A stretch of 46,213 bases of DNA from Candidatus Babeliales bacterium (GCA_035479215.1 DATIIZ010000030.1:1-46213), one strand, 5' to 3'. Shown: positions 824-33,010, counted from the stretch's first letter. Program-made: numbers and translations. Notes: generated from the letters alone by a model not told the origin.

Positions 824-1390
824 TCAGAGGTTTAGTGCTTTTTTGGCAGCTGTTTTGAAATCCTCGAAGTTATTATTATCGTTAGTTATGAAAATATCGG
901 CCATGGCCTTAACGGCAGCCATATTTAGTGTGGCTTCATCGCCACCGTGATGGTGCATTTCTTCGTATTCCTCTCTCTGGAACTGCTCGAAAGTCTTGTT
1001 ATCTTCGGCACTGCGCTGGCGTGAATATATTCTGTCGTAACGAAGCTTGGGATCGGCATCGACCCACACTAATTTGCCGCCTAAATCTTTTATGTGCTGG
1101 GCCTCGCCGGGATTACGCATTGGTATAGCCACCAGCCCGGTGTATTTGTTGCCTGATTGATTAAACAGCTCTACTGCTTTGTCTACCAAAACACCGACTC
1201 CGTAATCGCGGCGCCACTCGGCGCTAATATTGCGCAATACTTCCCTTTCGATGGGCAAGCCACGTTTTTGTGCCTCCTGGCGTAAAAACTCTGAGACCGA
1301 GACATCTAAGTAGCCATAATCATCGGCCAGAAACTTTCCCAGGCTATCCTTCCCCGACCCATTAGTACCGCTAATGCCAATAAGATTCAC
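824..1390 (-). CDS. P-loop nucleotide/nucleoside kinase-like protein (dephospho-CoA kinase / NMP kinase-like fold)
   Basis: N-terminal Walker A GISGTNGSGKDS. The GTG start overlaps the TGA stop of the upstream sigma gene (GTGA), which suggests translational coupling. Confidence 0.6.
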   Translation of the reverse strand: MNLIGISGTNGSGKDSLGKFLADDYGYLDVSVSEFLRQEAQKRGLPIEREVLRNISAEWRRDYGVGVLVDKAVELFNQSGNKYTGLVAIPMRNPGEAQHIKDLGGKLVWVDADPKLRYDRIYSRQRSAEDNKTFEQFQREEYEEMHHHGGDEATLNMAAVKAMADIFITNDNNNFEDFKTAAKKALNL

Positions 1391-2793
1391 CTGCTAACTG
1401 CCTTAAGACTTTCCATTAGGTCGTGGGCTTTTATTTTCGCTTGATTGCTCTTTTTTACACCTAACAACTTGTAAACTTCCTGGAGGGTAGTCTTTACCTG
1501 ATTATGCGGTAATCTGGTGTATGCAACAATCTCAGACACTGTGAACGCCCTTGATAGATAGGTTAATATCTCGTGTTGACGAGGGCTGAAGGTAACCTGA
1601 GCACCATCATTATTAATCGTCAGCTCGGGCAGTTCCCTGCGAGGCACGGTATCCAGGGTACCGCTAACGGCACATTTAACTTCTTCTGATTCAGATAATT
1701 TTTTTAAGGCTTCGGTTTCTATATTCAAGATTGTTTGTCTTGCTCGCCCAAACCTCTTGCACACTTGCGTTAGTGTTTCCGGCTCTTGCCCGGCTAATCC
1801 AAACCGCCTGATTATTACTTCTTTTTCACGGTCAGATAATCGGGGCATAGCTTTAATTAGGGCGTCATGTATGGTAGTTTTTACTGCCTGGTCGGCAATT
1901 TCGACTTCTTTTTGATCAGCCAATAACTGTCCGAGTTCAGCGCCATCATCACTATCGCCAATCTCTTTGTTTAATGAAGCTACGACCTTGGGGGCCCTCA
2001 TGGCCGCTTTATATTGGCCAGTCGTAAGATTTGCTTCTTCTCTGACCTCATCTGGCGTTGGCACCCTATCTAGTTCATTTCTAAGCTTTTTTTGAGCTTC
2101 TTCTATCTTTCGCTGACAATCGACGACTTCAAGCGGCAGCCGGATCAGGCGGCCGGTATTTACATTGCCCCTCTGGCAAGCTTGGCGGATCCACCAAGTG
2201 GCATAGGTGCTAAATTTGAACCCCTTTCGCCAGTCAAATTTTTCTACCGCCCTTATTAATCCAATCGTACCGTCTTGGATCAGGTCAGGGAAATCTGTTC
2301 TATAAACCATGTGGTTACTGGCGATAGAAATCACTAATCGGAGATTTGAAACTATCATATCGTCTTTAGCAGAACTATCACCTCTTTCAATCCGTTTAGC
2401 TAACATAACTACTTCTGCAGCCGAAAGCAGCTTGGCCTTACCAGCTCCTTCCTTGATATGGTCTAGAACGTCACCATATAACGGGTCTTGAGTGCCTATT
2501 GCCTGTGCTTCTAAAGTTCTAATTTCTTCATCTTCTAAATCAGTTGAATCCGGATCTTCGATCTTATCTAACAAATCTTCTACAGTGGAATAAATATTGC
2601 CATCCGTCGCTGCCTCCATGGGGTCTAGTGGTGTTGTGTCGGCTACATCACGCATTCCAAAGGGAATTACATTAGTTAAGCCCTCAATAGCCAATCCGGC
2701 CTCAGGTTCCCAGGCCGAATCTGGATAGAGGTCAAACTCTTCATCAGCCGGATCTTCACCTTCATCCGACCAGTATGCTAATGCCTCAGTCAT
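1387..2793 (-). CDS. sigma-70 family factor with an extra C-terminal LuxR/GerE-type HTH domain
   Basis: Region 2 is NLRLVISIA...[36 protein letters not shown] and region 4 is LSDREKEVIIRRFGL...ILNIETEALKKL. A linker of about 36 aa follows. The final 66 aa, SPRQHEILTYLSRAFTVSEIVAYTRLPHNQVKTTLQEVYKLLGV, fit the LuxR C-terminal HTH pattern. Confidence 0.85.
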   Translation of the reverse strand: MTEALAYWSDEGEDPADEEFDLYPDSAWEPEAGLAIEGLTNVIPFGMRDVADTTPLDPMEAATDGNIYSTVEDLLDKIEDPDSTDLEDEEIRTLEAQAIGTQDPLYGDVLDHIKEGAGKAKLLSAAEVVMLAKRIERGDSSAKDDMIVSNLRLVISIASNHMVYRTDFPDLIQDGTIGLIRAVEKFDWRKGFKFSTYATWWIRQACQRGNVNTGRLIRLPLEVVDCQRKIEEAQKKLRNELDRVPTPDEVREEANLTTGQYKAAMRAPKVVASLNKEIGDSDDGAELGQLLADQKEVEIADQAVKTTIHDALIKAMPRLSDREKEVIIRRFGLAGQEPETLTQVCKRFGRARQTILNIETEALKKLSESEEVKCAVSGTLDTVPRRELPELTINNDGAQVTFSPRQHEILTYLSRAFTVSEIVAYTRLPHNQVKTTLQEVYKLLGVKKSNQAKIKAHDLMESLKAVSR

Positions 2794-2881: not shown

Positions 2882-3985
2882 TCATATATTTAGCAAAACG
2901 TCCTCTAGCCCGTGTCCGGCACCGAGAGCTCTTAGTTTTTCTAATGATTCATTTTCAATCTGTCCAATGAGAGATCTGTCGACGCCAATGTTAGCGGCAA
3001 CCTCCTTCTGGGTCCTGGGTAGCTCACCGTCCAGACCATGTCTTTGAACCAGAATTTGTACCTCCCTATCGGGTAGTTTAGCAAGCAGTAACCCAAGCGC
3101 TTGACGCCTGATAATACGTCTGTCAATTTCATCAGTAGTTAATGTAAAAGGATCTTCTATAATTTCACCGAGCTCTGCTGCACCGTCTTTTTGCATATGC
3201 CCGTTTTTCATTGGTTTGTTTAGGGAGACTGGCTGATCATCAAAAGCCCCTACCGTGTCTAGATATTGCCTAAGTGTCAGCCCTGCCGCTGTAGCAACCT
3301 CTTTGTCAGTCGGTTCTCTGTCCAACTCTAGCTTCAAAGATCTGCGCTTAGCATTAATTAAACTGAGTCTTTCATACTGGTGTTTGGGAACGCGTATGGC
3401 TTTTGATTTATCTACAACGCTTATCCTAACTGCCTGACGGATCCACCAAGTCGCGTACGTGCTAAATTTCTTTCCACGGCGGTAGTCAAATCTATCTACA
3501 GCCGTAATAAGGCCAGTAACTCCCTCATGAATTAAATCTATAAGTTCTATCTCCCTACCCTGGTACTTTCTAGCGATAGAAATCACCAAACGTAAGTTAT
3601 GGTTAATCATCGTCTCTCTGGCCTGGTCTGCGGTGACCGAATCCCCTTCTTGTATAGCCCTACCAAGCCTGATTTCATCTGAGTGTTCCAATAAAGGAAA
3701 TCTATCCGCATACATCCTGAATTGGGTTAAGGGGTCTAAGTTTACCGTTTCGGGGGCCTCGACTGGCGGTTTTTTTGTTCCGGTAAGTTCAGGCGGATCG
3801 CTATCAACCTCAGATATCGGTTCGGCGAATACCTCTATGCCAACACCTGGCTCATCATAGTCAAAATCCTCAGTAGGATCGCCGTCAGCCCAGCCTGCAA
3901 TGAGTTCGAGGACTCTGGGGCCACTGACTTCAGCCAATACTTCACCCGCCCACGAGTCGTCAGATTGAGTGGCTAGTTCGCTCAT
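2882..3985 (-). CDS. sigma-70 family factor (second paralog, acidic N-terminus)
   Basis: [56 protein letters not shown], plus region 4 LPDREVQILVQRHGL...IGQIENESLEKLR. Confidence 0.85.
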   Translation of the reverse strand: MSELATQSDDSWAGEVLAEVSGPRVLELIAGWADGDPTEDFDYDEPGVGIEVFAEPISEVDSDPPELTGTKKPPVEAPETVNLDPLTQFRMYADRFPLLEHSDEIRLGRAIQEGDSVTADQARETMINHNLRLVISIARKYQGREIELIDLIHEGVTGLITAVDRFDYRRGKKFSTYATWWIRQAVRISVVDKSKAIRVPKHQYERLSLINAKRRSLKLELDREPTDKEVATAAGLTLRQYLDTVGAFDDQPVSLNKPMKNGHMQKDGAAELGEIIEDPFTLTTDEIDRRIIRRQALGLLLAKLPDREVQILVQRHGLDGELPRTQKEVAANIGVDRSLIGQIENESLEKLRALGAGHGLEDVLLNI

Positions 3986-24749: not shown

Positions 24750-27296
24750 ATGAACCTACCGAGCGTTTACGAGCCGGGGAAGTATGAGGAGGATATCTAT
24801 AAGCTCTGGGAAGAGAGCAAGGTATTCACTCCAAAAAGAACTAATTCCGAGGAAAGCTATTCGATAATGATGCCGTTGCCGAACGCCAATGGCCGGCTTC
24901 ATATCGGCAGTGTTTTGTTTGTTACGCTTCAAGATATTGTATCCCGGTACCAGCGCATGAAAGGGAAGCAGGTTCTTTGGCTGCCGGGTGCCGACCATGC
25001 CGGTTTCGAAACTTGGGTGGTTTATGAAAAGAAGTTAAATAAAGAAGGCAGATCTCGGTTTGACTACAGCCGGGAAGAGCTATACAAGCAAGTTTGGGAC
25101 TTTGTAGCCAGCAATCGGAAGGTATTTGAGCAGCAATTTAGAGAACTCGGCGCCAGTGTAGACTGGACTCGCTTTACTTTCTCGCTTGATGAAAAAATCG
25201 TAAATCAAGTCTATAAGACTTTTAAAAAGATGTGGGATGATGGGCTTGTTTACAGGGGTGAGAGAATAGTCAATTATTGTACCTATCATGGCACTAGTTT
25301 CGCTGATATCGAGGTCGAATATAAAGATGTGGACAGCCATCTTTGGCACATAGCCTATCCCTTAACAGATGCTAGCGGGGAAGTGGTGGTGGCTACGACC
25401 AGGCCGGAAACAATGCTGGGCGATGTGGCCGTGGCAGTCAATCCATCAGATGACAGATATAAGAAATATATCGGTAAAACAGTTAAATTACCTCTGACCA
25501 ACAGGGAAATTCCGATAATCGCTGATGAATTTGTCGATTCCAATTTCGGGACAGGTGCAGTAAAGCTTACTCCGGCCCACGACCCGGTAGACTTTGAAGC
25601 AGGACAGAGGCACGACCTGCCCATGATATCCGTTATAGACCATGAGGGGAATATGACTCATCATGCCCCGGAACCCTACCGAGGACTTGCGGCTGAAGAA
25701 GCCCGGAAAAAAGTGGTAGACGATCTAGAAAAAGCCGGCCTTATCAAGAAGATAGAAGAATATAGCCACAGCGTCGGGCACTGTTATAAATGCGGGAATG
25801 TAATCCAGCCGCTCTTGCTGGAGCAATGGTTTGTCGATATGAAACCGCTAGCAGCTCGAGCCATTGATTCTCTAAAAGAAAAGAAGATAAAGTTTTACCC
25901 CGACAGCAAACGTACCCAACTTATCAGATACCTAGACGGGCTTAAAGATTGGAATATAAGTCGCCAGATCGCCTGGGGGATACCGATACCGGCCTTTCGT
26001 AATGTTAATGATGACCAAGACTGGATCTACGACGAAAGGGTAGGGGAAGAAGAAATATCGGTAGACGGTAAAACTTATGTCCGTGATCCTGATGTATTTG
26101 ACACTTGGTTTTCTTCAGGGCAGTGGCCGTTTGCCGCCTTAGGTCTGGATAGCCAAGATCTTGAACAATTCTATCCTACAAGTCTTATGGAAACTGGGGG
26201 AGAAATCCTATATCCGTGGGTGTCGCGGATGATTATGCTCGGGCTGTACATGACCGACGAGGTTCCTTTCGAAGATGTTTATATTCACGGCTATGTACTG
26301 GCAGCTGACGGGGCCAAGATGAGCAAAAGCTTGGGCAATATTATCGATCCCGATGGTCTGCGTATAAAATATGGCGCCGATGCCTTAAGACTAGGGATCA
26401 TCGATGGCCGCGCGCCAGCAATTAATCGACCATTCGATGAGACTAAAGCCAAGGCCGGGCGAAACTTCTGCAATAAGCTTTGGAATATTTCCAGATATAT
26501 TGAAGGAGCAGCAGGACAGGGAGATAGTTCTAGCCCTAAGCCAAACAGCCCAGCGGACCACTGGATACTTAACAAGTTAAGTAATTTAACAGAAGGGTTA
26601 GACGCAGATTTGAGTAAATATCGTTTTGGTGATGCTTATCTAAAACTTTATCACTTCGTATGGGATGATCTGGCCGATTGGTACATCGAGGCTTCTAAAA
26701 CCGAACTTAATCCAGGCCTTCTAAAATACGTCCTGGAATCAACCTTAATTGTCGCCCATCCTTTCGCCCCATTCATTACAGAGGTAATTTGGCAGAATTT
26801 AGGGCACAAAGAACTTTTAGCAACTCAGCTATTGCCCAAAATTTCCGAATCAGATAAATCCGAAGCCGGTAAATTCAAAGGAATTAAAGAACTAATAGCG
26901 GAAATCCGAATGTGGAATGCCACAACTTCTACTAAAGCCCAGGACTTCTACTATGGGAGTACGAACTGGGTAGATGAGCAGCGAGACATATTGGAAAAAT
27001 TGGCTCGCTTAGAGAATATCAGCCATTCAGAAGCGAAACCGTCTGGCACTATCCCGCTGACATCTGTTGACGGCGACTTTTGGCTAAGAATTGACCGCGA
27101 TGCAGCAAAACCGAACCTAGAAAAACTGCTGGCTAATTATCGGCAAAGTGAAAAGTTACTCAAACGGCGATTAGATAGTCCGGGCTATAAAGATAAAGCT
27201 CCACAAGAAATTGTTGCTCAAACTGAAAAAGAACTAGTTGAAACCAGTGCGCTGGCAAGTGTGGTGGAAAAACAGTTGAAGTCTTTAGAAGACTAG
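24750..27296 (+). CDS. valS: valine--tRNA ligase
   Basis: A HIGH-like motif (NGRLHIGS), KMSKS (KMSKSLGN) and a C-terminal coiled coil; 848 aa. Confidence 0.93.
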   Translation: MNLPSVYEPGKYEEDIYKLWEESKVFTPKRTNSEESYSIMMPLPNANGRLHIGSVLFVTLQDIVSRYQRMKGKQVLWLPGADHAGFETWVVYEKKLNKEGRSRFDYSREELYKQVWDFVASNRKVFEQQFRELGASVDWTRFTFSLDEKIVNQVYKTFKKMWDDGLVYRGERIVNYCTYHGTSFADIEVEYKDVDSHLWHIAYPLTDASGEVVVATTRPETMLGDVAVAVNPSDDRYKKYIGKTVKLPLTNREIPIIADEFVDSNFGTGAVKLTPAHDPVDFEAGQRHDLPMISVIDHEGNMTHHAPEPYRGLAAEEARKKVVDDLEKAGLIKKIEEYSHSVGHCYKCGNVIQPLLLEQWFVDMKPLAARAIDSLKEKKIKFYPDSKRTQLIRYLDGLKDWNISRQIAWGIPIPAFRNVNDDQDWIYDERVGEEEISVDGKTYVRDPDVFDTWFSSGQWPFAALGLDSQDLEQFYPTSLMETGGEILYPWVSRMIMLGLYMTDEVPFEDVYIHGYVLAADGAKMSKSLGNIIDPDGLRIKYGADALRLGIIDGRAPAINRPFDETKAKAGRNFCNKLWNISRYIEGAAGQGDSSSPKPNSPADHWILNKLSNLTEGLDADLSKYRFGDAYLKLYHFVWDDLADWYIEASKTELNPGLLKYVLESTLIVAHPFAPFITEVIWQNLGHKELLATQLLPKISESDKSEAGKFKGIKELIAEIRMWNATTSTKAQDFYYGSTNWVDEQRDILEKLARLENISHSEAKPSGTIPLTSVDGDFWLRIDRDAAKPNLEKLLANYRQSEKLLKRRLDSPGYKDKAPQEIVAQTEKELVETSALASVVEKQLKSLED

Positions 27297-28060
27297 GCCT
27301 TCTGAGCTATTAATTGCTTGGCTCCGACTTTAGCCATCTCGAAAACTTGTCTTAGGGCTTGGGCGATCTGTGGGCTTTCTATGATAGTGCCGATGGCTTC
27401 CTCGCCGAAAGATATTAAGGATACCTTATCTCCGTAAATTGATATCTCAACAGGAGCGGTATAAGATTTAGGCGGATACCAGGCCATATCTCTTTTTAAC
27501 TCCGTATCATTTTGTTTAGCCCAATCGATAGCTGAAGGAAAGGCCGGTGCTAACCCGTGGGCATTAATACCTGCTTTAGACCGCTTCTGCATATATTTGT
27601 ATAGAACGTCGCCGAAGTATTCCTCGTCTGCTGGGGTGCGGATAAAGTAAACATCTTTGCCAGTTCTTAAATGATCTTCGTAGATTTTGGTTAAACCTTC
27701 CTTGCCTTGATAGAACCTAACGCCGGGTTCGCCCCTGTTGCTGTAATAATAAGTCAGTAACTGAGGCAGGGAACTGCGGTAAAGATCTTCGGCTGACGAA
27801 ACTTCTTTTCGCTTTTGGGCGATGAATTTTTCCAATGCGGAAGGGTTGGCTGGGGAGTAAGTCGCTTTCTTGGCATCACCTTCTTTTGTTGCCAGGCCGA
27901 TTTCTTCTAATTTGGCCAGGGACATGTAAGCCGCCGTCCGTGATTCCTTTATACGACCCGCCAATTGCGGCGGGGTTAGACTACCAGCTTTTATGAGTGC
28001 AATGTAGCTTTTGGCCTGGGAGTTGGTCAAACCGAATTGCTTGAGTGTTTCAGCATTCAC
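27293..28060 (-). CDS. TrmB-like winged-HTH transcriptional regulator
   Basis: N-terminal LTNSQAKSYIALIKAGSLTPPQLAGRIKESRTAAYMSLAKLEEIGL. GTG start. It is divergent from GC-rich island 2. Confidence 0.65.
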   Translation of the reverse strand: MNAETLKQFGLTNSQAKSYIALIKAGSLTPPQLAGRIKESRTAAYMSLAKLEEIGLATKEGDAKKATYSPANPSALEKFIAQKRKEVSSAEDLYRSSLPQLLTYYYSNRGEPGVRFYQGKEGLTKIYEDHLRTGKDVYFIRTPADEEYFGDVLYKYMQKRSKAGINAHGLAPAFPSAIDWAKQNDTELKRDMAWYPPKSYTAPVEISIYGDKVSLISFGEEAIGTIIESPQIAQALRQVFEMAKVGAKQLIAQKA

Positions 28061-28148
28061 TATCCGATATTATCAATAGTTTCATACTTTGTAAAGTTAT
28101 AAATTGACAAAAATAACACTTTAAACAGATATAAAATTAAGCTTATAA

Positions 28149-28177
28149 TTGACATTATAATGTAATTAAGTCATAAT
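28149..28177 (+). promoter_or_regulatory. promoter of island 2
   Basis: TTGACA-N17-CATAAT. A second TTGACA lies at 28104-28109 within a repeated TTATAA(A)TTGACA motif. Confidence 0.55.
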
Positions 28178-28227
28178 ATCGCCGTCAGTTTGCATAAGCA
28201 AGTTGACGCACATTACAAGGAGAAGCC

Positions 28228-28656
28228 ATGGATGAGGAAACTGCCTATCAGAAAGCTAATGAACTCGTATGTCAGCTTTACGGCGTGGGTAGCCCGGTCT
28301 CCGACGAAGAGGTTCGAGTTCTGATAGCCGGCAGGAGGCGCCAACGAATTACTTTGGCTCTTCAGCTTGTCGGGATATCAGAGCTATCTGGGTTTAGTCC
28401 CACGGAGCTCGTGGAGATGCTGGATTTCGATCTTCGTGCACCACATGCCTACGTAGAGTATGCCCGCTACTTCAAGCGAGCCTGCAAAGTCTTCTGTAAG
28501 AAGGGCTATGGGTCTGAGATTCAGCGAGTTCTGACAACCGACGGGATGTTTGGGAGGCAGGGCAACGAGCCCTTTTTGTCTCCAGCCTCGTTGATTAGGT
28601 CAAGGGACGTTAGCGGTCTTGACGACCTGATCTTCAACCTTCCACCAAAGGAGTAG
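28228..28656 (+). CDS. orphan GC-rich ORF C (142 aa)
   Basis: ATG 5 nt after AAGGAG; higher GC than the flanking genes; no family recognised. Confidence 0.55.
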   Translation: MDEETAYQKANELVCQLYGVGSPVSDEEVRVLIAGRRRQRITLALQLVGISELSGFSPTELVEMLDFDLRAPHAYVEYARYFKRACKVFCKKGYGSEIQRVLTTDGMFGRQGNEPFLSPASLIRSRDVSGLDDLIFNLPPKE

Positions 28657-28935
28657 GAGTTCGGAGCCAAGAGAACCCTCCCCACGACGAGGGCGGGCAA
28701 GAGTGGAGCAGGGTGGAGCGCTTCGGTGCTCATCCTAAGGATCTGCAACCTGTCGAAAGGCAGGAAAACTTCTCTCCGCAACGAGGGAGAAGTAGCAGTC
28801 AGAGGTAACTCACTTGGCTTAATAGCGACGCAGCCTCCTCTGATGTCTGGCTTGAAAAACCAGGTACCTTCCAGGGCGGTCGCTCCTTTGGGGGTGTGAG
28901 CTCGGGACATTTGTCCTTGAGCTCCACCCCCTTAA
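28657..28935 (+). ncRNA. unclassified highly structured GC-rich RNA region
   Basis: No ORF of 60 aa or more on the + strand. Hairpins include GAGCGC-UUCG-GUGCUC (28716-28731), CCUGUC-GAAA-GGCAGG (28749-28764) and CUUCUCUC-N8-GGGAGAAG (28769-28792). A composite hairpin of 17 paired bases spans 28890-28931. The tetraloops are canonical only on the + strand. Confidence 0.45.
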
Positions 28936-29007
28936 AACGTAGGCAGATGTGTATCTGCCCTGATGAGGCCAACCCGCCAAGAGGCGGGCAAAGAAGGCCG
29001 AAACGTT
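28936..29007 (+). ncRNA. type III hammerhead self-cleaving ribozyme (predicted cleavage between 28941 and 28942)
   Basis: AACGUA|GGCAGAU-GUGU-AUCUGCC-CUGAUGA-GGCC[...CCCGCC-AAGA-GGCGGG...]GGCC-GAAA-CGUU. All invariant core nucleotides, the G10.1-C11.1 pair, the A15.1-U16.1 pair and the GUA cleavage triplet are present. Confidence 0.78.
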
Positions 29008-29024
29008 AATTAATCAAGGAATAT

Positions 29025-29849
29025 ATGAACGAAACTTTAGATAATCAAATTCAAGATCCTGAGAAGGCTCATGCAATGGCTTTGGCCGGTGATGGATTTA
29101 GAACTGAGGCTGTTCAAAAACGCCAGAAAGCTGCCGCAATCCAGTTAGCTAAATTAGCCTATGAAGACACGACCGATCAAGACACTCGCAAGAAAATATT
29201 AAATGGTGCTTTTACAGAGGTGGGTGTAAATGATTTTTGGAGTCGGCCAGATATAGTTGGGAGGCGACCAGGATCATTTAGAAGCCGGAATTTAGGGAAC
29301 AATTCTTCGCAAGATGACATTAATGCACGGCGAGATAGGCAGATTGCGAGTTTTCTCGGGTCGCATACCAGATATGAGGATCGGGCTCAAGAATTAGAAA
29401 GCTTAGCCGAAGAAAAAGAATCGTGGGCCGAACTAATATTTGACAATCCTGCTGTCGAACATTACAAAAAAATTCACCCTGAACTTAACATTGAAGACCA
29501 ATGGCGGCTGGAATGCATAGTAAATCAGGCTAGGGCATATTATGAAGGCCATCTTAGTGATATGCCGAGGTACAGAGAGGTCCTCCAAGACGGTAAATAT
29601 GTGCCGGGAGGGTTGCTCCAGCACCTATTTCCGAATAGTTTTTCTGAAGAAGATGAGGAAGAGTTTGAACCTAACTCCGAATTGCTGAAACTTTTAAATA
29701 ACGGTGGCACGACCGTTGACCAGCTACGTGAATTCCTACTGCGCCAGGAAGAGATAAAACTTGAAGCGGAGAAAAAGCGAGCTGAAGATCTTACGCAAAT
29801 GCTCGCTGATATTAAAAAAAGACAGCTTAGTGCGAACTTGGAAAATTAG
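29025..29849 (+). CDS. hypothetical protein (274 aa, charged, coiled-coil-like C-terminus)
   Basis: Native-like composition, SD AAGGA, starts 18 nt after the ribozyme. Confidence 0.6.
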   Translation: MNETLDNQIQDPEKAHAMALAGDGFRTEAVQKRQKAAAIQLAKLAYEDTTDQDTRKKILNGAFTEVGVNDFWSRPDIVGRRPGSFRSRNLGNNSSQDDINARRDRQIASFLGSHTRYEDRAQELESLAEEKESWAELIFDNPAVEHYKKIHPELNIEDQWRLECIVNQARAYYEGHLSDMPRYREVLQDGKYVPGGLLQHLFPNSFSEEDEEEFEPNSELLKLLNNGGTTVDQLREFLLRQEEIKLEAEKKRAEDLTQMLADIKKRQLSANLEN

Positions 29850-30712
29850 AACTCTAGTGCGGTTTTGACGCGGGCGATGCTGTCTTCGGGGTTGAGTTCG
29901 TCGAACCAGACCACCTGCCAACCTTGTTTGTCGGCGGCTGTCAGGTAAGGGCGCTCATTATCTACTAGCAAGATTTCGTTGGGCTCCATGGCGGCCAGTT
30001 CCTGGGCGGTCTGATAAATCTTGGGGTCCGGTTTAACGGCGCCGGCTTTAGATGAATCGACGGCTACTTTGTAGTTTAAATCTGGGATAAGTTTCTTTTG
30101 CAGCAGCTCGTCAACGAAACCGGGCATGCTGTTGGAAAGCAGACCGATCTCGTAATTTTCTGCTACCCAGTCCAACAGAGGCACAATGCCCGGGATGGGC
30201 TCCACACTAGCCATGTAATATTTGTGCCAGTCGAACCCGGGCACGTCCAGCTCTTGGCCCATCAGTTTATTGAACTCTTCGCCACTCATATTACCGGTCG
30301 CACCCGTATCATTGCGGCGCCAAAAAAGGGCTTCGCCCATATCGACAGGTTTATTAACATCTTGCGCGACCATCGTAAAAGCCCGGTGGAAAAAGTGCAC
30401 CAGCGTACCGTTAACATCAAAGAATACAAATCGTACGCCGGTTTTGGAACGTTTCTTAGTGTTTATCGGAGCGGTAGACTCGATGCCGCGGCTTTGTAGC
30501 TCTAATAAATCTTCAAGCTTGGCACCCGTTACCGAAGCGATATTAGCGACAGTAAAAACAGATGGTGAGCGGATAGCACCACGTTCTATCTTTGCCAAAG
30601 TCGAATAACTTAGTCCGGCTTTTTGGCACAGCTCCTGCTGGGTCATGCCGGCGCGTTTGCGCGCTAACTGTAAACGATTGCCAAGAGCTTTTTCATCCAT
30701 AGCAATGCCCAC
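29846..30712 (-). CDS. XRE-family HTH fused to a HAD-like hydrolase domain
   Basis: The N-terminus LGNRLQLARKRAGMTQQELCQKAGLSYSTLAKIERG is followed by FVFFDVNGTLVHF (DxxGT motif I) and a C-terminal LLVDNE. The start could instead be the ATG at 30700. Confidence 0.7.
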   Translation of the reverse strand: MGIAMDEKALGNRLQLARKRAGMTQQELCQKAGLSYSTLAKIERGAIRSPSVFTVANIASVTGAKLEDLLELQSRGIESTAPINTKKRSKTGVRFVFFDVNGTLVHFFHRAFTMVAQDVNKPVDMGEALFWRRNDTGATGNMSGEEFNKLMGQELDVPGFDWHKYYMASVEPIPGIVPLLDWVAENYEIGLLSNSMPGFVDELLQKKLIPDLNYKVAVDSSKAGAVKPDPKIYQTAQELAAMEPNEILLVDNERPYLTAADKQGWQVVWFDELNPEDSIARVKTALEF

Positions 30713-32248: not shown

Positions 32249-32445
32249 GGTAAGGAATGCTTAACTTGTTAAGTATTTTTATAATGAACGAAAGTTATAG
32301 ATTAACTAGGAAATAGAATCTAAGCATAAGCAATTGCTTTTTACCCCTGTTAGTGGTATGAATTAGACAGCATCAAGGCACTACCCGTTTGGGCCCGTCT
32401 TGGGCCGCACATTCCGACTACGAGTTCGCTCGTGAGGGGAGACCC

Positions 32446-32943
32446 ATGTCTCGTAAGCATGGAGCGCTGTTGATTGCAGCGCTCGCCGTTATGGCTTTGG
32501 CGACGACCGCGAGTGGCTCGAATGCTGCTCCTGCGTCGGCAAAGATCAAGTGCGAGTCGACTAGGACCCAGATCCGAATCACGATTTGCGGTCCGACAAT
32601 CGTCGATCCGACCACCACAACGCCGTTTTCGGTGAGGGTGAGCTACCCTCGTGGCAAGCCGATCAGCAAGATCGTCATCAACATCGGCCCGAGCGACTAC
32701 GTCGTGACGCCCGCCAGCGCCCAAGGTCACACCACATACGACCAGTCGTACAAGATTCAGGCGGTCACCTGGACCGTCAAGCACTTCCGTGCTGGTACTG
32801 GAATCACCAAGAGATTGGGATTCCAGTTCCCACCGGAGAACACGTACGGCTCGAGCCTCTTCGTGCATGTCGGGGCCTATGGGCCCTACTACAAGGCCGG
32901 GCTGATGAGATTCGTCACCTACCGGCAAGTCCAAGGCGGCTAG
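32446..32943 (+). CDS. orphan GC-rich secreted protein D (165 aa)
   Basis: ATG after GAGGGGAG. The signal peptide is MSRKHGALLIAALAVMALATTASGSNAAPASA. The body is beta-rich with two Cys, and third codon positions are strongly G/C. Confidence 0.6.
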   Translation: MSRKHGALLIAALAVMALATTASGSNAAPASAKIKCESTRTQIRITICGPTIVDPTTTTPFSVRVSYPRGKPISKIVINIGPSDYVVTPASAQGHTTYDQSYKIQAVTWTVKHFRAGTGITKRLGFQFPPENTYGSSLFVHVGAYGPYYKAGLMRFVTYRQVQGG

Positions 32944-32968
32944 CTCGCCGCACGCGCAGCAGTAACGC

Positions 32969-32992
32969 GGCCCCCGTGGAGACACGGGGGCC
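32969..32992 (+). terminator. 10-bp GC hairpin after ORF D
   Basis: GGCCCCCGTG-GAGA-CACGGGGGCC. Confidence 0.5.
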
Positions 32993-33010
32993 GAGAAATA
33001 CCAAATCACA

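Follow-up and report, generated by a model that had tools for sequence, protein, structure and literature searches.

A probable type III hammerhead ribozyme directly upstream of the ribosome-binding site of an unannotated protein family in Saccharibacteria

Hammerhead ribozymes are numerous in bacteria and, to our knowledge, almost none has an assigned biological role, partly since their gene neighbors are inconstant. A 46,213-nucleotide (nt) stretch of bacterial DNA (DATIIZ010000030.1:1-46213; hereafter the window, with coordinates counted from its first letter) carries, on the + strand between two open reading frames (ORFs) named ORF142 and ORF274, an RNA motif that reads AACGU-A/GGCAGAU-GUGU-AUCUGCC CUGAUGA GGCC-AA-[CCCGCC-AAGA-GGCGGG]-CAAAGAA-GGCC GAAA-CGUU, the slash marking the predicted cut. 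Is this motif a genuine hammerhead, and what would its cleavage do to the two genes it separates? We consider it likely that it is a genuine, evolutionarily maintained type III hammerhead that cuts the operon RNA at 28941/28942, uncoupling both halves.

Motif, fold and homologous copies

All core positions and 16 of 16 helix pairs are intact in the window copy (Table 1). Every motif letter, invariant nucleotide and helix listed in a preliminary description of this DNA could be read directly in the sequence, and its placement of the scission between 28941 and 28942 is correct for hammerhead numbering; the distance to the ATG, given there as 18 nt, is 17 nt (between 29007 and 29025). The minimum-energy structure calculated with RNAfold is exactly the three-helix junction (-29.8 kcal/mol, z = -3.96, with 0 of 200 shuffles as stable), with loops on helices I and II and an open helix III, a type III topology with which a descriptor scan agrees. 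The junction still forms when it is folded within a 361-nt context. The Rfam model RF00008 (Hammerhead_3) aligned to the motif end to end, over model positions 1-54, at 32.8 bits, with an expectation value (E) of 6.5e-5 in a 1.1-kb scan and of 0.0027 over the whole window, both strands and all 4227 families. A strict type III descriptor (helix I of at least 4 bp, CUGANGA, a G-C-closed helix II, GAAA, helix III, U16.1 and a non-G at position 17) found exactly one site on both strands of the 46 kb and none in 200 shuffled windows; over 200 kb of non-viral loci, its matches were confined to the intercistronic hammerhead sites.

Upstream DNA was readable for nine distinct members of the ORF274 family, and in five of them (the window, L010, L058, L063 and L015) a hammerhead lies directly before the Shine-Dalgarno (SD) sequence. 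Every copy shares the same layout, namely a stable hairpin without a U-tract, the hammerhead, about 10-17 nt and the SD; in L010, L015, L058 and L063 the hammerhead is followed, after about 10-17 nt, by AAGGAG and a start codon. The proteins encoded downstream are only 25-57% identical to ORF274, and the ribozyme core is invariant. Together with a second copy in L010, six copies entered the covariation alignment, from which the 21-nt loop 2 insertion of the window copy (28973-28993) was removed to keep register. Eleven core nucleotides and the A15.1-U16.1 and G10.1-C11.1 pairs are the same in all six, and the nucleotide at H17 is A, C, C, C, U and C, never G. Helix cells are paired in 91.7% of cases, a figure that falls to 29-38% once the 3' partners are shifted by 1-3 columns, and 9 of the 16 pairs (5 in helix I, 3 in helix II and 1 in helix III) hold through two-sided changes, a covariation score reached by 0 of 500 shuffles. 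Likewise invariant are a U-G (columns 15-16), made up of the final 5'-strand base of helix I and the opening base of loop 1, and three loop 2 A residues (columns 39-41), loop 2 of the window copy being split by the 21-nt hairpin; the U-G together with these A residues would fit a loop 1-loop 2 contact. A covariance model built from the six copies scored its own members at 66-79 bits and gave no further match in the window or in 19 Saccharibacteria loci, where the next best hit reached 12 bits.

The two same-strand hammerheads of L010 are about 80% identical and stand on either side of a 144-aa orphan ORF (ORF144); 686 nt separate their cleavage sites. If both cut, a gene-length RNA is predicted to come free, with a 5'-OH and a cyclic phosphate at its ends, and it would be circularizable in principle.

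Table 1. Coordinates of features in the window and in related loci
Feature	Position	Strand	Remarks
Type III hammerhead ribozyme	28936-29007	+	Motif, fold, Rfam and descriptor; conservation and covariation with five homologous copies
Helix III	28936-28940 paired with 29003-29007	+	5' strand AACGU (28936-28940), 3' CGUU (29004-29007); 5 bp, open
A17 (H17)	28941	+	Cleavage triplet GUA; non-G, after U16.1
Predicted scissile bond, A17/G1.1	28941/28942	+	Standard hammerhead numbering
Helix I	GGCAGAU 28942-28948, AUCUGCC 28953-28959	+	7 bp; GUGU loop 28949-28952
Core strand CUGAUGA (C3-A9)	28960-28966	+	Invariant in six copies
GAAA	29000-29003	+	Core GAA 29000-29002; A29003 (A15.1) pairs with U28940 (U16.1)
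Helix II	GGCC 28967-28970, GGCC 28996-28999	+	4 bp with extension; G10.1-C11.1 is G28967-C28999
Loop 2 insertion	28973-28993	+	21 nt; hairpin CCCGCC-AAGA-GGCGGG (28973-28988) plus CAAAG
SD AAGGAA of ORF274	29016-29021	+	SD and ATG 9-18 nt 3' of the ribozyme
Start codon of ORF274	29025-29027	+	17 nt from last paired base (29007)
ORF274, second cistron	29025-29849	+	274 aa; family that these hammerheads precede
Valyl-tRNA synthetase (ValRS) gene	24750-27296
TrmB-type regulator gene	27293-28060	-
Promoter-like sites	28120-28177	+	TTGACA-17-CATAAT 28149-28177 (sigma-70-like); second 28120-28149; consensus scan
ORF142, first cistron	28228-28656	+	GC-rich; AGGAG SD
Structured RNA, non-coding	28664-28931	+	About 270 nt; homologues in L011 (about 1148-1425) and L015 (about 3475-3750)
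Terminal hairpin of structured RNA	28890-28931	+	About 20 bp; ends 4 nt before the hammerhead
HTH-HAD protein gene	29846-30712	-
Hammerhead, L010, before ORF274 homologue	1602-1656		40.6 bits
Second hammerhead, L010, one gene further upstream	916-970		42 bits
Hammerhead, L058	127-181		37.9 bits
Hammerhead, L063	2932-2986		35.3 bits
Hammerhead, L015	3754-3808		23.1 bits; mismatches
Slot, window	28100-28656		First cistron ORF142
Slot, L001	1700-2381		First cistron a homologue of ORF142
Slot, L011	850-1139		First cistron a membrane-like ORF of about 49 aa
Slot, L015	3200-3470		No ORF
Slot, L026	1-330	-	First cistron an unrelated ORF
Slot, L010	600-1492		ORF63 plus ORF144
Slot, L063	2300-2885		First cistron ORF135

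Score threshold, losses and the loop 2 insertion

Several observations weigh against a genuine and maintained ribozyme that separates the two cistrons, and the first is the Rfam score. The covariance-model check proposed in the preliminary description gave a divided outcome, since the end-to-end alignment stands at the whole-window E given above and the 32.8 bits remain under the gathering score of 48.5, a curated cut-off and not a biological feature. A default (gathering) Rfam scan of the whole window lists only two tRNA-Ser genes, and the hammerhead surfaces only with E-value thresholds. The shortfall is mostly due to the 21-nt hairpin inserted in loop 2 ([24] in the Rfam alignment against 7 model positions), with the short helix III contributing, and the five homologous copies also score under the threshold (23-42 bits). 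RF00008, a member of clan CL00010, derives for the most part from sequences of plant viroids, satellites and eukaryotes, and default Rfam thresholds overlook copies such as these. The alternative that GC-rich, hairpin-rich sequence resembles the hammerhead consensus by chance has this low score in its favor, along with the bare core pattern CTGATGA...GAAA, which is not rare (about 0.8 per shuffled window). The absence of the full descriptor from all 200 shuffles, the whole-window E of 0.0027 and the covarying homologues that four other lineages carry at the orthologous site leave chance with practically no probability, and the comparative data already refute it. The earlier judgement that a chance match was improbable is borne out by the same results, and the assignment to type III by copies at orthologous sites with an invariant core and compensatory changes in all three helices. 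On every testable sequence criterion the motif is a type III hammerhead, the Rfam bit-score threshold being the sole formal failure, and we take it to be real and probably active.

A second group of points concerns evolution and effect. Most of the double changes divide the two L010 copies from the rest, which leaves few independent compensatory events. L011, a close relative (TrmB 78% and ORF262 57% identical), is without the ribozyme through a clean deletion of about 70 nt that retains the structured RNA and the gene. The L015 copy may be a decaying ribozyme: its helix I contains an A.C mismatch and its helix III a C.A mismatch, and helix II has only 3 bp. Its mismatches come from two A-for-G differences relative to the window copy, at positions 1.2-2.2 and 15.2-16.2; the gene downstream in L015 is only about 25-29% identical to ORF274, and the RNA elements are 67-85% identical. 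No ribozyme was found before the more distant family members L059 and L064, nor before L062, for which only 40 nt of upstream DNA were readable. Judged from this distribution, the ribozyme is maintained in several lineages and dispensable in others. Finally, partition-function calculations gave an accessibility from the SD to the AUG of 0.59-0.61 in full-length, partial and cleaved RNA alike, and a model in which cleavage unmasks the SD is unsupported, because the predicted accessibility is equal with or without cleavage.

The last point is the loop 2 insertion itself. Natural hammerheads need the loop 1-loop 2 contact at cellular Mg2+, and this contact could be disturbed by the insertion, which occurs only in this genome, the homologues having a plain AAAA or GAAA loop 2. 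The window copy might then be a relic of an active hammerhead, crippled by the 21 nt, with neither function nor selection left, and persisting only because it is young. The uniqueness of the insertion, the loss in L011 and the decay in L015 among close relatives would agree with such a relic, as would the score of the window copy against the lineage model, the lowest of the six (66.3 versus 71-79 bits). We nevertheless regard it as unlikely, given that the core and all 16 helix pairs of the window copy are intact and that the insertion forms a perfect 6-bp hairpin keeping the flanking A residues of the AAAA loop (GGCC-AA[...]AA-GGCC). It resembles a tolerated stem extension; long helix II extensions are common in natural hammerheads, and the Rfam model permits insertions at this point of loop 2. 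The inserted hairpin (28983-28996) and a stem of the structured RNA (28692-28703) share GGCGGGCAA(A)GA, which could reflect a local duplication or chance in GC-rich sequence.

The window, L011 and L015 form a natural set of presence, absence and decay in which the effect of an intercistronic ribozyme on its flanking genes can be compared. Scans anchored on TrmB yielded few new loci, and no hammerhead was present in five GTDB loci. The proteins P0008 and P0009 (L016-L020) gave only partial matches with no ribozyme and were dropped.

Operon anatomy and the neighboring structured RNA

The 964-nt space between the TrmB-type gene and the next gene holds, in order, AT-rich DNA, ORF142, a hairpin-rich stretch of about 270 nt and the hammerhead. 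The AT-rich promoter spacer is shared divergently with the TrmB-type gene, and a consensus promoter scan gave 6 sites in the region where 1.4 were expected. Promoter-like sites on the + strand lie only upstream of ORF142; between ORF142 and ORF274 we found no such site on that strand and no convincing terminator. With a single promoter region and nothing convincing between the cistrons, both are most simply read as parts of one transcription unit. L011, L026 and L015 have conserved the promoter and leader sequence, and the sites at 28120-28177 would work as the operon promoter. The parting of the downstream mRNA from the ORF and structured RNA before it, which the preliminary description predicted as the outcome of cleavage, fits this anatomy (one promoter region, no convincing terminator, and SD and ATG 9-18 nt on). 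One further statement of that description stands in part. Its orphan upstream ORF is nearly one, ORF142 having a single homologue among 5.8 billion clusters (P0002; 56% identity, gapless over 139 aa, same synteny) and no Pfam, NCBIfam, PHROG or PADLOC match. The GC-rich island is more than a single ORF, as it contains both the coding ORF at 28228-28656 and the non-coding structured RNA at 28664-28931. Further neighbors are a HIT protein gene and tRNA-Ser. Relatives of the TrmB protein, at 54-65% identity, sit in metagenome-assembled genomes whose titles name Candidatus Saccharibacteria, Saccharimonadales or Patescibacteria, which places the host in the Saccharibacteria (TM7, candidate phyla radiation).

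The first cistron is hypervariable from one close relative to the next. Every variant sits in one and the same chromosomal slot, in divergent orientation to the TrmB-type gene, and the slot is occupied in five related lineages (Table 1). Its cassettes are GC-rich (51-63% versus 40-48% in the background), and searches of Pfam, PHROG, PADLOC and NCBIfam matched none of them. Behind a conserved promoter-like region and leader stand unrelated, unannotated GC-rich first ORFs, or none, as though cassettes were swapped. Saccharibacteria live on high-GC Actinobacteria, and one idea is that the cassettes might be acquired DNA. In L001, the ORF142 homologue stands in the same slot and is followed directly by a terminator-like hairpin and the convergent HTH-HAD gene, with no structured RNA, hammerhead or ORF274. 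L001 also has a GC-rich, hairpin-rich leader of about 120 nt (1810-1935) before ORF145; the window is without such a leader.

Homologues of the hairpin-rich stretch, 61-73% identical, occur in L011 and L015. Their indels are mostly not multiples of three, and a coding role was rejected on this ground. RNAalifold returned 73 pairs in 11 helices for the three sequences, with 96.8% of cells paired versus 40-53% in slid controls; 21 pairs show two-sided changes, a result reached by 0 of 500 shuffles of the three distinct sequences, and the fold has a z of -4.05. Single-stranded stretches conserved in all three include GAGUGGAG, CUCCUCUGA and CCUUCCA, and the conserved UCAGAGG and CCUCUGA could pair at long range. 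No Rfam family matched at E of 10 or below, a pattern scan of the viral contigs did not find the structure, and neither did nhmmer in five more distant Saccharibacteria loci or in all other loci compared. The stretch is a candidate new RNA family, with three distinct sequences so far. Public gene calls over it, a 129-aa ORF in the window (28521-28910, -) and a 104-aa ORF in L011 (995-1309, +), are probably spurious, as they lie on different strands and their frames are broken by indels.

The structured RNA occurs without the hammerhead in L011, and the hammerhead without the structured RNA in L010, L058 and L063, which indicates that the two are independent modules; allosteric coupling between them was set aside for this reason. 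The same independence bears on a different purpose for the cut. The job for which the ribozyme is selected could be 3'-end maturation of the structured RNA, freed as a discrete stable RNA, with control of the downstream mRNA not being the purpose. In both the window and L015 the ribozyme begins 4-5 nt after the terminal hairpin of the structured RNA. This hairpin lacks a U-tract and is not an intrinsic terminator, so that freeing the RNA would need a processing event; after cleavage the RNA would end in the hairpin and a tail of 10 nt. We find maturation improbable as the selected function in view of the independent modules, and because the constant neighbor of the ribozyme is the downstream ORF274-family gene with its SD.

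A broader proposal also gives the structured RNA a function, and we assign it a low probability. The hammerhead would belong, as one of several modules, to a cassette system specific to this lineage and not described before, located in a hypervariable island of Saccharibacteria, in which swappable GC-rich cassettes (orphan ORFs and structured RNA) are placed on one conserved promoter beside the TrmB-type regulator. The ribozyme would sever these cassettes from the fast-evolving helical-protein gene of the ORF274 family, and the cut would free the structured RNA, with its cyclic-phosphate end, as a functional non-coding RNA acting with or on the ORF274 protein, possibly in the epibiont-host interaction or in defense.

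The ORF274 family, as the constant downstream partner, was also characterized at the protein level. Close homologues are few (P0004, P0005 and P0007); a full HMMER scan gave 131 representatives at E of 1e-3 or below, none of them annotated. ORF274 has no Pfam, NCBIfam, PHROGs, PADLOC or PDB sequence match, and a scan of the genome collection with its profile found nothing. A first AlphaFold model from 4 sequences was poor, with a predicted local distance difference test (pLDDT) score of 59, and a second one from 30 sequences is all-helical (pLDDT 85, predicted template modeling score 0.74). The latter produced no significant Foldseek match in PDB or BFVD, and the family, which evolves fast, may have a new helical-bundle fold.

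Predicted cleavage and relation to known systems

From the motif, its fold, conservation and covariation, its position before ORF274-family genes and the operon anatomy, all of them observed or computed, we infer cleavage in the cell and its consequence for expression. The operon would be transcribed from promoters at about 28120-28177 through ORF142, the structured RNA, the hammerhead and ORF274, and the three-helix junction would fold once RNA polymerase has passed 29007. Hammerhead chemistry is an internal transesterification that leaves a 2',3'-cyclic phosphate and a 5'-OH. By this established chemistry, the 2'-OH of A28941 would attack the adjacent phosphate and cut the RNA at 28941/28942. 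The 5' product would consist of ORF142 and the structured RNA, ending in the hairpin of about 20 bp and a 10-nt tail with the 2',3'-cyclic phosphate. The 3' product, the ORF274 mRNA, would have a 5'-OH on G28942, the helix I hairpin (7 bp) from its first nucleotide and the SD about 75 nt on. The fates of the two halves would be uncoupled in decay and possibly in translation, and the conserved ORF274 would receive a uniform 5' end whichever variable cassette lies upstream. Whether the ORF274 mRNA would be stabilized or destabilized cannot be told from sequence, and there are precedents both ways.

The two precedents are a synthetic and a natural leader ribozyme. RiboJ, a synthetic insulator, is likewise a type III-derived hammerhead directly upstream of a ribosome-binding site, where cleavage standardizes the mRNA 5' end; a passage in PMC7536230 that cites Clifton et al (2018) describes cleaved mRNA as decaying more slowly than uncleaved mRNA in Escherichia coli. 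The resemblance arises because the upstream cassette is hypervariable and the downstream gene constant. The element of the window differs in being natural and in lacking the 23-nt hairpin added after the ribozyme in RiboJ, and its predicted ribosome-binding-site accessibility is independent of cleavage; an insulator function like that of RiboJ is conceivable, the likeness being a functional one. The glmS ribozyme is also a self-cleaving RNA in a bacterial gene leader whose 5'-OH product decides the fate of the mRNA, and in Bacillus subtilis this product is degraded by RNase J1, according to a statement in PMC3328962 that cites Collins et al (2007). It belongs to another ribozyme class and is ligand dependent, whereas nothing points to ligand control of the window hammerhead. 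Unlike in glmS, the stable hairpin at the first nucleotide of the 3' product would be expected to hinder a 5' exonuclease.

Compared with RF00008 type III members, the window copy has the same core (CUGAUGA, GAA, A15.1-U16.1, G10.1-C11.1 and a non-G at 17), the same topology and an end-to-end alignment, and it differs by the loop 2 insertion, the short helix III and its host, a Saccharibacteria chromosome. Most bacterial hammerheads have been described from a prophage context. Clustered hammerheads flank genes in bacterial prophage operons, for which the proposed role is the cutting of polycistronic RNA into gene-length mRNAs with protected ends, and cleavage in vitro was obtained for three operons (Perreault et al, 2011; PMC3088659). 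The layout of hairpin, hammerhead and SD in the window fits this proposed role. As in those clusters, the genes on both sides of the ribozyme share a strand and a transcription unit and are of variable identity, and L010 likewise has two ribozymes flanking a gene. The window differs in its single copy and in having no nearby integrase or phage genes, and the prophage cases show no constant gene identity, whereas here one downstream family is conserved across lineages. This sub-family is unusual in standing in a chromosomal, non-phage operon with the hammerhead directly before the ribosome-binding site of one protein family.

Two hammerheads on one strand also suggest an excision and circularization unit like those of viroid-like RNAs or retrozymes, in which a pair of ribozymes cuts out an RNA for ligation into a circle. 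The pair flanking ORF144 in L010, 686 nt apart, would suit such a unit, and the possibility was raised for clustered bacterial hammerheads by Perreault et al (2011; PMC3088659), who could detect neither circular nor spliced products. On neither strand does the window contain a second ribozyme beside its one hammerhead, which leaves no excisable unit and refutes the idea for this locus; we hold it to be very unlikely.

The phage or mobile context raised in the preliminary description does not apply here. The neighbors are housekeeping genes, no significant PHROG match, integrase or phage gene was found among the window neighbors, and 50,697 phage records gave no match to the ORF274 protein or to the island DNA; a phage origin was rejected on these grounds. 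Related designs do occur in viral contigs. L033, a viral contig of about 70% GC, carries at 1620-1740 the hammerhead CCGUC/GGCGGAU-GUGU-GUCCGCC CUGAUGA GGCC...GGCC GAAACGG, which scores 56.5 bits with the lineage model and sits after a gene-terminal hairpin; it shares with the window the 7-bp helix I, the GUGU loop 1, the GGCC helix II and the upstream hairpin. The viral contigs L042, L043, L044, L049 and L053 have three hammerheads each, 1.6-2 kb apart.

A full-text literature search found no paper joining hammerheads with Saccharibacteria, TM7 or Patescibacteria, and the two papers in it that join 'hammerhead' with the candidate phyla radiation concern domain insertions in RNA polymerase. 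The element is of a known kind, and its lineage and setting seem to be without an earlier report, which extends hammerheads to the Saccharibacteria, within the candidate phyla radiation.

Elsewhere in the window, a second GC-rich island (32350-33000) has about 60% GC against about 43% around it. It contains an ORF of 165 aa (32446-32943) with a signal-peptide-like N-terminus and no Pfam match, followed by a terminator-like GC-rich hairpin at about 32960-32990.

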